Shown here: one piece after another, positions 9,069-11,063 of the stretch
Layout: each line of letters begins with the position of its first letter
Numbering within the stretch: the stretch's first letter is position 1
Assembly: GCA_022750055.1 (NCBI GenBank)
Contig: JAKIWL010000004.1
Location: 36,405-100,404 of the forward strand
Length of the DNA: 64,000 nucleotides
Direction: 5' to 3'
Source: Thermoplasmata archaeon
Lineage (GTDB): Archaea; Thermoplasmatota; Thermoplasmata; Lutacidiplasmatales; UBA184
The notes under the pieces: model-generated
The model's database searches: none
What the model saw: only the letters and a program-made list of their open reading frames with translations
Told to the model about the DNA's origin: nothing
Made by a program: the position numbers and the translations under genes

Positions 9069-9398
9069 CTACCGGCTGGTGGAAAGCCAGCTTGCGAGCG
9101 GGAGGAGGCTCTGGTAGAGCGAGGTACCGGAGGGCGTGAGCGAGTAGGCTTGCACGGGTCCGCGACGACCCTCGATCGGGACGCGGCGGATCAGGCGGGT
9201 CCGTTCGAGGGCGCGGAGCGTCGAGGTCAGCGTGGCGGGGCTCACGCCGGAGAGGCATTTCTGGATCGGGCCGAAACGCACCGTCCCGTACTTGCCCAAG
9301 AGTGACACCACGCAGACCGCCCACTTCTTTCCCACGACGTCGATCAGTCCGATCGGGGGGCACGGGCACTCGAGCTCCCCAAGGCAGCACGACGACAC
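9069..9398 (-). CDS. HxlR/DUF24-family winged-helix transcriptional regulator with Cys-rich N-terminus
   Basis: 109 aa. Motifs CPCPPIGLIDVVGKKWAVCVVSLL and VSPATLTSTLRALERTRLIRRV are typical HxlR. The N-terminus MSSCCLGELECPC carries 4 Cys. Confidence 0.85.
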   Translation of the reverse strand: MSSCCLGELECPCPPIGLIDVVGKKWAVCVVSLLGKYGTVRFGPIQKCLSGVSPATLTSTLRALERTRLIRRVPIEGRRGPVQAYSLTPSGTSLYQSLLPLASWLSTSR

Positions 9399-9427
9399 TA
9401 TCGGCGTACGTAGCGGACCGTTATTAC

Positions 9428-9446
9428 TACTTCAACTATTGAAGTA
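9428..9446. promoter_or_regulatory. Perfect 8-3-8 inverted repeat TACTTCAA-cta-TTGAAGTA (putative HxlR operator), next to a TTATTA/TAATAA box at 9421..9426
   Basis: Read directly from the 57-bp AT-rich divergent spacer between hxlR (start 9398) and the Cys-rich smORF (start 9456). Confidence 0.45.
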
Positions 9447-9455
9447 ACGAGGACC

Positions 9456-9563
9456 ATGAGCGAACCCTCTGACCCGGCGCCGTGTTGCGACCCGACGAAC
9501 TGCTGTCCTGGAGGATGTTGCCCACCCGGCTGCCCGCCCGGTTGTTGTGACGAATGCCCCTGA
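9456..9563 (+). CDS. Cysteine-rich 35-aa peptide (metallothionein-like), MSEPSDPAPCCDPTNCCPGGCCPPGCPPGCCDECP
   Basis: ATG at 9456 and TGA at 9561..9563, below the ORF-track size cutoff. 10 Cys in 35 aa with 4 vicinal CC pairs. A TATA-like box lies about 30 nt upstream. Its last 10 nt overlap the arsC ATG (9554). Confidence 0.5.
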   Translation: MSEPSDPAPCCDPTNCCPGGCCPPGCPPGCCDECP

Positions 9564-10011
9564 AGCTGGAGCGGTGGGTGCTGTTCGGCTGCGTGGAGAA
9601 CTCCTGCCGATCGCTCATGGCGGAGGCGATGTTCAACGCCGGACCGCCGTCCGGATGGAGGTCGACCTCCGCCGGAACCCGACCCGCGCTTCGGGCGAAC
9701 CCCCGGACCGCATCGATGCTCCGAGTGCTCGGGCTCGAGCTTCCTCCCCATCCCCCCCATCTGCTGACCCCCCGATGCTCAAGCGAGCCAGCCACACCGT
9801 CACGATGGGCTGTCTGGACGACGCGAGCTGCCCCGCCCGCCTCGAGGCGACAGCGCCTACGGATTGGGCGCTTGCGGACCCGGCGACGCTCGATGACGAG
9901 GGGTTCCGCCGGGTTCGACGGGATCTGACGCGACTCGTCCGCGACCTTCAGACCGACCTCGCTCGAGGGGGCAGCGCTTCGCTCGAGCGGCACGACCCGA
10001 CGGTCCGATAA
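9554..10011 (+). pseudogene. arsC: Arsenate reductase, LMW-PTP type (ArsC), interrupted by a 1-nt frameshift in a poly-C tract
   Basis: The N-terminal half is in the frame of ORF 9554..9928 (FGCVENSCRSLMAEAMF, the CX5R P-loop; SAGTRPA). The C-terminal half is in the frame of ORF 9547..10011 (SHTVTMGCLDDASCP...DWALADP...FRRVRRDL). The frames switch near the C7 run (9752..9758) or the C6 run (9768..9773). Confidence 0.7.
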
Positions 10012-10235
10012 CAACGTTCACGGAAGGGCGCCGGGGGCCTCATCGGGGGGAACCGCGGCCCGGTGTGAGTCGCGACCCAACCCCCGCGCCACCGTCCGCC
10101 CCTTATTCCTGGCCGCCTGGGGGCGGGGCCGCGGCGGGTCAAGTTCTGGCAACAGGACGATCGAAGCCGATCGCCGCCCGGAGTGGACCGTCCTCCCCTC
10201 CTTTACTCAAATATCGCCTCGAGGTGGGCTCGCCG

Positions 10236-11063
10236 ATGTCCGAGCGGAGCCAAACGGCGGTCGCCCTCCACCATACGGACCAGGGTCAGGGACCGGCTCT
10301 CCTTCTTTTGCACGGCCTCGGGGGTGATCATCGGGTTTGGGAACCACTCCTACCTGGCCTCACGGGGGAATTTCGCGTCCTCGCTCCGGACCTGCGAGGG
10401 CACGGCGAGACTCCCGCTCCCGTGGGCTCCAAGCTCACTTTCACAGAGCACGTCGCCGACGTATCCCTCCTGCTCGAGACGGCTCGGGTGGACCGCGTCC
10501 ATCTGGTCGGCCTGAGCGCCGGCGGGCTCCTCGCGATACAGTTCACCCTCGACCGGCCGGAGCGGGTCGCCAGCCTCGTCTCGATCGCCGGGGCCGTGAA
10601 CGTCGACAATCACACCCGCGCGATCGCCGACCGGTGGGTCGAGACGTATCAGAAGGACGGGTTCGACGCGTACGTGTTACGCCTCGCCAAGGACCTGTAC
10701 TACCCGGACTGGGTCGAGGCCCACCTCGACATCGTCGATCGCCTTCGGGCCGACGCGGCGGGGGCCGAGTACGCAAGCCTGCTACGATGGAGGGGGGCGA
10801 TACGAGAGTTCGATGTCCGAGGGCGGGTCGGGAAGATCCGCGTTCCGACCCTCATCGTCCACGCGATGGAAGACCAGGTGATCGACGTCGCCCACGCGCG
10901 TCTGTTGCGACAGTCCATCCCCGGCGCCGAGCTCCGACTCTTCGCTCAAACGGGCCACCTCCTCCCCACCGAGCGTCCGGAGGAGGTCGGCGCGGCGATC
11001 CGGGACTGGGTCCGCAAGGTCGAAGCCCGGAACCCCGACCGCCCGAGCCGAAGCCTCCCATAG
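10236..11063 (+). CDS. Alpha/beta-fold hydrolase
   Basis: Motifs LLLLHGLGGDHRVWEP, DLRGHGET, GLSAGG (nucleophile elbow), GHLLPTERPEE. The internal ATG at 10236 is preferred and is preceded by AT-rich tcaaatat. Confidence 0.8.
   Translation: MSERSQTAVALHHTDQGQGPALLLLHGLGGDHRVWEPLLPGLTGEFRVLAPDLRGHGETPAPVGSKLTFTEHVADVSLLLETARVDRVHLVGLSAGGLLAIQFTLDRPERVASLVSIAGAVNVDNHTRAIADRWVETYQKDGFDAYVLRLAKDLYYPDWVEAHLDIVDRLRADAAGAEYASLLRWRGAIREFDVRGRVGKIRVPTLIVHAMEDQVIDVAHARLLRQSIPGAELRLFAQTGHLLPTERPEEVGAAIRDWVRKVEARNPDRPSRSLP

Follow-up and report, generated by a model that had tools for sequence, protein, structure and literature searches.

The stretch analysed here, 64,000 nucleotides (nt) of contig JAKIWL010000004.1 from the Thermoplasmata archaeon assembly GCA_022750055.1 (the window), carries a very short open reading frame (ORF) between the divergent gene of an HxlR-family regulator and arsC, the gene for an arsenate reductase (Table 1). 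The encoded peptide is 28.6% cysteine, with the spacing CC-x4-CC-x3-CC-x3-C-x3-CC-x2-C and four vicinal pairs. An earlier note, made from the DNA letters alone, had picked out this ORF as a possible metal(loid)-binding component, and translation returned the coordinates, the ten cysteines, their spacing and the four CC pairs as that note gave them.

In a scan of all 83,506 open 35-codon segments in the six frames of the whole 64 kb, segments with at least six cysteines were confined to positions 9423-9560, and the highest count, ten, was that of the ORF itself. With a GC content of 68%, the window has only 1.6% TGY among its trinucleotides. The cysteine density of the ORF is far beyond chance, and the opinion of the earlier note that a chance origin is unlikely is supported by this being the only such locus. 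Two long antisense ORFs, 9398..9760 (-) of 120 aa and 9436..10014 (-) of 192 aa, run opposite the peptide gene and arsC; spurious frames of this kind are typical of DNA with 68% GC and could mislead gene callers.

Table 1. Genes and control elements around the peptide gene, in window coordinates
Feature	Position	Strand	Remarks
HxlR-family winged-helix regulator gene (hxlR), divergent	9069..9398	-	109 aa, GTG start; Pfam PF01638, E=3e-15
CGTACGTAG element	9405..9413		between TATA box and hxlR start codon; near-invariant in aligned intergenic regions
A/T-rich TATA-like box TTATTA	9421..9426		30 nt to peptide ATG, 23 nt to hxlR GTG; CTTATGA in most relatives
Perfect palindrome TACTTCAA-CTA-TTGAAGTA, predicted operator	9428..9446		between TATA box and inferred transcription start of the peptide gene
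GAGG, Shine-Dalgarno-like	9449..9452	+	3 nt before ATG; conserved in most relatives
Cys-rich peptide gene	9456..9563	+	ATG 9456, TGA 9561-9563; 35 aa, 10 Cys; MSEPSDPAPCCDPTNCCPGGCCPPGCPPGCCDECP
arsC, N-terminal part	9554..9769	+	low-molecular-weight protein tyrosine phosphatase (LMW-PTP) type, thioredoxin-coupled; CX5R loop CVENSCRS; Pfam LMWPc, E=5.7e-9
arsC, C-terminal part, other frame	9775..10011	+	TMGCLDDASCP with Cys82/Cys89 equivalents

Conservation and coding signature of the peptide gene

Homologues of the regulator (330, at ~70-88% identity) are named only from metagenome-assembled genomes (MAGs) of Thermoplasmata; for the regulator protein of the window itself, a look-up by exact sequence gave no recorded contig. 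A profile built from 23 homologues recovered 63 genomic loci (62 in Thermoplasmata-type archaeal MAGs), and an independent scan of metagenome contigs, which used the promoter/operator pattern alone, yielded 34 further loci. In every metagenome locus that does not run off its contig, the predicted operator is followed first by a gene for a Cys-rich peptide, ArsM or ArsC. After removal of redundancy, 69 operator-bearing promoters from Thermoplasmata MAGs and soil metagenomes formed the basis of the tally. The first gene is a Cys-rich peptide gene of 23-47 codons at 46 of these and arsM at 14, while arsC lies directly behind the operator at two (L082 and L097). The others carry a short ORF with fewer than five cysteines (three promoters), an unrelated 137-aa protein (L059), a peptide frame read through to 75 aa (L089), or a first gene cut by the contig end (two). 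Orthologous loci therefore keep an open Cys-rich frame at the same position, at 46/69 promoters, as the earlier note had anticipated for a genuine gene.

Two of the exceptional loci have features of their own. The peptide N-terminus MPEPSRQTPCCDPSDASCCCRCCCCCCGRCC is identical in the L089 and L090 contigs, and the read-through in L089 probably reflects either an erroneous indel or a true frameshift in a run of Cys codons. At L059 the HxlR protein is only 62% identical, and the 137-aa first protein begins with MCDCC and has a GCCSHM motif; with no match in Pfam or NCBIfam, it may be a further, uncharacterised thiol protein belonging to this regulon.

In all, 53 distinct peptide sequences were collected, with ~33% cysteine and the consensus MPE-x5-6-CCDP-x3-C-PPGCC-x2-CC. 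A second subtype has its C-terminal half replaced by up to nine consecutive cysteines (for example, MPETSKPTSCCDRSNSCCCCCCCCCGSDTTCC), and runs of 6-9 consecutive Cys codons are found in many members. The family is an unannotated group of cytosolic peptides, about one-third cysteine, encoded by the first gene of an arsenate-detoxification operon of soil Thermoplasmata.

The coding signature is specific to one frame. Among 43 members, TGY codons make up 32.1% of the ORF frame vs 2.6% and 0.6% of the other two. The same 43 peptides consist of 33% Cys, 13% Pro, 8% Gly and 7% Asp, and leucine (0.1%), isoleucine (0.2%), valine (0.7%), phenylalanine (0.2%), tyrosine (0.1%) and tryptophan (0.1%) together account for ~1.4%. 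The ratio of nonsynonymous to synonymous differences (pN/pS) was 0.32 in the ORF frame vs 1.77 and 1.10 in the shifted frames, a value that comes from nine short, partly non-independent pairs of equal length and is indicative rather than precise. Aligned Cys codons were identical in 41 cases, synonymous (TGC/TGT) in 12 and replaced in 10. Across the 46 loci the ATG, the GAGG a few nt upstream and the position of the stop codon are kept, although the length and sequence of the peptide vary widely. The earlier note had proposed a dN/dS-type test of whether the frame is conserved, and the pN/pS values agree with a coding frame. An RNA element at this position was rejected: nothing in Rfam matched at E<=1 (at gathering score, the only Rfam matches were two tRNAs elsewhere), and the RNA fold was no better than that of shuffled sequences (z=+0.68). 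ORF 9456..9563 is a genuine protein-coding gene.

Searches of protein families and collections returned no relative. The window peptide had no match in Pfam (E<=1) or NCBIfam, and neither had seven other members in Pfam or three in NCBIfam, the sole sub-threshold match being a compositional one of the L061 peptide to keratin high-sulfur protein. Padded to 40 aa, the window peptide shared no words with 5.8 billion predicted proteins; a 42-member profile drew 1118 candidates from the same proteins, none of them at E<=0.01, and an exhaustive phmmer search of 1.84 billion representatives gave 0 matches, but short, low-complexity queries have little power at such database sizes and these negatives alone are no proof of absence. 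Nothing significant was found in the PDB, where the best match (E=7) was a Cys-rich domain from Hydra. An exact look-up of ten members in a collection of 15 billion proteins came back empty, which indicates that gene calling had passed the checked members over; ORFs of fewer than ~40 codons routinely escape gene callers. The description of the peptide in the earlier note, as unannotated and without a known homologue, agrees with the family, PDB and protein-collection searches. The term 'archaeal metallothionein' did not occur in any of the papers listed by a literature search, and a 2018 review covering how ars genes are distributed among prokaryotes uses neither 'cysteine-rich' nor 'metallothionein'. 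The word 'arsenic' is absent from the publication that described Lutacidiplasmatales, the order of MAG L046.

Operon context, promoter and regulator

The usual operon consists of a divergent HxlR-type regulator gene followed, on the other strand, by genes for the peptide, a thioredoxin-type ArsC and a MIP channel. In 40 of the 46 loci, arsC follows the peptide gene with a stop/start overlap or a gap of a few bases. The earlier note had based its proposal of translational coupling on the arsC ATG lying within the last 10 nt of the peptide ORF; the ATG is indeed there, and the overlap is conserved among relatives, mostly as TGATG or ATGA. A MIP channel with two NPA motifs comes after arsC in ~42 genome loci (Pfam MIP, 129 bits), and L047 has ACR3 in its place (TIGR00832, 408 bits against a cut-off of 282.8).

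Where the peptide is absent, its slot is usually taken by arsM, identified by NF008823 (305 bits; cut-off 263), again followed by arsC and the MIP gene. Five loci (L030, L033, L049, L052 and L055) have a stand-alone peptide gene. In the last four, it is followed by non-coding DNA and unrelated genes, while L030 has tandem copies of the promoter and operator (operators at locus positions 2688 and 2937), of which the first precedes a stand-alone poly-Cys peptide with an apparent GTG start and the second precedes arsM-arsC-MIP. Since the peptide and ArsM alternate in one slot and co-occur in L030, the arrangement fits a role for both in handling the product of ArsC. ArsM proteins under the same operator (such as those of L005, L017 and L024) all have 2-3 SSCCG repeats within their N-terminal 60 residues. 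A derivation of the peptide as a remnant of the ArsM N-terminus, with its CCG...CCGD motifs, was considered and rejected at an hhalign probability of 0.1%.

The ~3 kb behind the operator in the clustered genome loci showed no genes for resistance to copper, zinc, cadmium or mercury. Apart from the 137-aa protein of L059, everything else found under the operator (arsM, arsC, MIP and ACR3) acts on arsenic. The link to arsenic is stronger than could be seen from the window by the earlier note, as the operator also drives arsM, and MIP or ACR3 genes lie behind arsC.

All arsC orthologues retrieved are intact, typically with 149 aa, and keep both the CX5R loop and the Cys pair of TMGCLDDASCP; for an intact orthologue the best NCBIfam family was arsenate reductase (thioredoxin) (E=1e-15, under the curated cut-off). 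The gene in the window retains this identity, and the earlier note was right to call it arsC, but it is split over two frames. Residues 3-69 of the L012 orthologue align by tblastn with 9569-9769 in frame 2 and residues 72-143 with 9775-9990 in frame 1, which places a -1 frameshift, through loss of 1 nt, in the C-run ACCCCCCG (9768-9774), a break that had gone unnoticed. The window arsC may be a real pseudogene in a decaying operon, or the product of a homopolymer assembly error. An alpha/beta hydrolase gene at 10236-11063 follows it in place of a MIP gene.

In operon relatives the palindrome between the TATA box and the peptide gene takes the form ACTTCAA-N3-TTGAAGT. The whole 64 kb contains a single copy of its core, CTTCA-N5-TGAAG; among the 63 related loci, 53 have exactly one copy and L030 has two. 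The palindrome is probably the operator of the HxlR-type regulator. The TTATTA box that the earlier note placed 30-35 nt before the ATG is present, so that the promoter spacing it described holds; its term 'leaderless' is only approximate, with a conserved GAGG 3-6 nt before the ATG and an inferred 5' untranslated region of ~7-9 nt. In archaea, the distance from the TATA box to the transcription start is ~26 nt. With this spacing, the peptide transcript would start near the GAGG at 9449 and have a very short leader, and a protein sitting on the palindrome would, from its place between TATA box and start, block polymerase recruitment, which is the standard geometry of archaeal repression.

The single A/T box is probably common to both divergent promoters, and its 23-nt spacing to the GTG points to one promoter firing in both directions and to an hxlR mRNA without a leader. 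The CGTACGTAG element contains a TACGTA palindrome and may be either a second operator or the initiator region of hxlR. Read forward, the conserved intergenic DNA upstream of hxlR contains ...CGTACGTAGCGGCGCCTTATGAGCACTTCAGCTATTGAAGTGGTCGAGGnCCATG... across the loci.

The PF01638 match confirms the earlier identification of the divergent neighbour as an HxlR-type regulator. In the columns of the homologue alignment its Cys11 and Cys13 (in an ECPCPP motif), Cys29 and Cys48 are invariant. The nearest solved structures are those of HxlR, YodB, QsrR and HypR/YybR, and in 1yyv and 7bze the N-terminal Cys aligns with Cys13. This regulator with its invariant cysteines appears to control only arsenic genes, and may represent a new class of arsenic sensor; the arsenic-responsive repressors known to us are ArsR/SmtB proteins. 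None of the papers listed by a literature search connects HxlR with arsenite or arsM, and only two papers were retrieved that contain both 'HxlR' and 'arsenic resistance', neither of them with either term in the title or abstract.

A candidate arsenite-binding role and its alternatives

On balance, we favour the interpretation that the peptide acts like a metallothionein, as a buffer or chaperone that binds As(III) and is co-induced with arsC, a capacity for binding being suggested by its composition and context. We hypothesize that the HxlR-type repressor occupies the palindrome until its invariant cysteines are engaged by As(III) arising in the cell, or by some other thiol-reactive species, and the operon is derepressed. 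The peptide and ArsC would then be made from one mRNA, the peptide being translated just before ArsC. As ArsC reduces arsenate to arsenite, the peptide would capture As(III) in three-thiolate sites; As(III) favours three thiolates, and ten cysteines could thus accommodate roughly three arsenic atoms per peptide. Cellular thiols and dithiols would in this way be shielded until arsenite exits through MIP or ACR3, or is methylated by ArsM. The peptide would serve as a genetically encoded buffer or chaperone, much as a metallothionein or phytochelatin does, in a role like that of ArsD in bacteria.

Several observations weigh against this interpretation. Cys-rich peptides bind many soft metals, and specificity for arsenic is suggested by the neighbouring genes only. 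Tight sequestration would lower the concentration of free As(OH)3, and so would oppose passive efflux through the MIP channel. A short ORF that is poor in or free of cysteine occupies the slot at L037, L041, L050, L060 and L021: the L037 (MPENRGPGPCGPEGGPPGGCDPTP) and L021 peptides carry Gly (GGC) where their relatives carry Cys (TGC), while retaining the MPE/MSEP start and the CDP motif, and the short ORFs of L041, L050 and L060 are without any cysteine. Together with L082 and L097, which have no upstream ORF, these Cys-poor or Cys-free slots imply that the peptide is dispensable for the operon. The ars locus in the window is atypical and truncated relative to its relatives, with a frameshifted arsC and no MIP or ACR3 gene in the whole 64 kb by tblastn. 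All host organisms are uncultured, and the small set of pairs behind the pN/pS ratio has to be counted here as well.

The most serious alternative, which we nevertheless regard as unlikely, is that the peptide is a general soft-metal metallothionein or a thiol/redox buffer (for Cu(I), Cd, Zn, Hg or electrophiles), with arsenic not its main ligand, and that it merely shares a thiol-stress HxlR regulator with the ars genes. The composition agrees with the operational definition of a metallothionein, namely a size of <10 kDa with ~15-35% Cys (here 35 aa and 28.6%, with a family mean of 33%) and few aromatic or hydrophobic residues, as found in the 43 peptides. The HxlR/DUF24 relatives YodB, QsrR and HypR sense oxidants and electrophiles, not arsenic, and at five loci the peptide gene stands alone. 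However, the other genes behind the operator are arsenic-specific, copper, zinc, cadmium and mercury resistance genes were not seen within the ~3 kb behind it in the clustered genome loci, and the peptide alternates with arsM in the same slot.

It is much less probable that the ORF is a regulatory upstream ORF, in which slowing of the ribosome on Cys runs, at low Cys-tRNA or thiol levels, sets the translation of arsC and the product itself has no function. The conserved overlap with the arsC start, the 6-9 consecutive Cys codons of many members, as in classical leader peptides, and the retention of a Cys-free short ORF at L041, L050 and L060 could all be explained in this way. Against it, the peptide gene is on its own at five loci, with non-coding DNA or a new promoter behind it, and two loci have no upstream ORF at all; variants without runs, including that of the window, keep their spaced Cys motifs and the MPE..CCDP N-terminus, and the amino-acid sequence is under purifying selection. 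An attenuation-type leader peptide in particular was rejected because stand-alone copies exist, no spacer is present (the ORF overlaps the arsC start) and the RNA structure is unremarkable (z=+0.68).

A dedicated thiol partner of ArsC, acting as a sacrificial or recyclable reductant or as a disulfide relay that replaces glutathione/glutaredoxin or aids thioredoxin in archaea devoid of glutathione, is slightly harder still to credit. Overlap or coupling with arsC in 40 loci and the many vicinal thiols would suit such a partner, but the ArsC orthologues keep a full triad of the Cys10/Cys82/Cys89 type, as in thioredoxin-coupled enzymes, for which a further thiol is unnecessary; the peptide is also present at loci without arsC, and it alternates with arsM, whose product acts on As(III) and not on As(V). 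A precursor of a ribosomally synthesized and post-translationally modified peptide (such as SCIFF, with six Cys in forty-five residues) was also considered and rejected, there being no maturase among the recurring neighbours (hxlR, arsC, MIP and arsM) and no NCBIfam match. Finally, a non-gene (a frame open by chance, a DNA repeat of the (TGC)n type or the shadow cast by an opposite-strand gene) is essentially excluded: GC-rich DNA does give long spurious ORFs, two of which overlap here, and no gene caller reported any of the ten members checked, but Cys-codon enrichment and purifying selection are frame-specific, the start, GAGG and stop are conserved across 46 loci despite variation in length and sequence, and the antisense ORFs overlap a recognisable arsC.

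The As(III)-binding interpretation can be extended to a broader proposal, which we hold tentatively and would not be surprised to see fail. The family may be a ribosomal, phytochelatin-like arsenite sink or chaperone, the first metallothionein-type family in archaea and the first inside an ars operon, which would offer, in the slot otherwise taken by ArsM, sequestration or hand-off instead of methylation, and would be switched by a previously unrecognised Cys-based HxlR arsenic sensor, not by ArsR. If the peptide binds As(III), it would add a new and widespread gene to the well-studied ars repertoire; if the proposal is correct, it would also be the first metallothionein-like family in Archaea and would show that cytosolic arsenite can be handled without glutathione or phytochelatins, both of which the host organisms lack to our knowledge. 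An HxlR-type arsenic or thiol sensor with a defined 19-bp operator would be a useful biosensor part, and ultra-short peptides with up to nine consecutive cysteines could serve in metal(loid) capture. The family also exposes a blind spot of annotation, with 53 distinct members in public data and 0/10 of those checked present in the 15-billion-protein collection. Its hosts abound in acidic soils and peat, environments in which the mobility of arsenic is important.

Relation to known thiol-based systems

The peptide resembles metallothioneins, phytochelatins and ArsD in its putative function, but its sequence places it in none of these groups. With the metallothioneins (SmtA/BmtA, MymT and the eukaryotic proteins), it shares a very small size, a content of ~30% Cys, the scarcity of aromatic and hydrophobic residues, the motifs CC, CxC and CxxxC, and an adjacent gene for a stress-responsive repressor, as in smtB-smtA. 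In contrast to them, it matches no metallothionein family in Pfam or NCBIfam, comes from archaeal hosts, and is encoded in an arsenic operon, not in a Zn, Cd or Cu system. Classical metallothioneins are also without the runs of 6-9 consecutive cysteines that many members of the peptide family have.

ArsD and the peptide are both accessory, non-enzymatic products of ars operons with vicinal Cys pairs. The As(III) site of ArsD is Cys12-Cys13-x4-Cys18, and the CCDPTNCC segment of the peptide (Cys10-Cys11-x4-Cys16) has the same CC-x4-C spacing, although the agreement could simply reflect the density of cysteines. At ~120 aa, ArsD (PF06953) folds like a thioredoxin and hands As(III) over to the ArsA ATPase; the peptide, by comparison, has 35 aa and no Pfam match at E<=1, and its partners are ArsC and MIP, not ArsA/ArsB. 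No arsA was noticed in the ~3 kb behind the operator in the clustered genome loci, and no search specific to ArsA was made in the window. Phytochelatins complex As(III) in the plant cytosol and are made enzymatically from glutathione; the role proposed for the peptide is the same, but it is ribosomally encoded and archaeal.

With respect to operon structure, the closest parallel is the arsR-aqpS-arsC-arsH operon of Sinorhizobium meliloti, in which arsenate is reduced and arsenite leaves downhill through an aquaglyceroporin-type MIP (PMC6205960). The combination of arsC with a MIP gene is found in ~42 of the related loci, though not in the window. The archaeal operons differ from that of S. meliloti in having an HxlR-type regulator and not an ArsR/SmtB protein, in starting with the peptide gene or arsM, and in lacking arsH. 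The regulator belongs to the same family as the HxlR/DUF24 thiol sensors YodB, QsrR and HypR and keeps the position of their N-terminal sensor Cys; unlike them, the window protein has the ECPCPP motif and two further invariant cysteines, and its regulon consists of ars genes.

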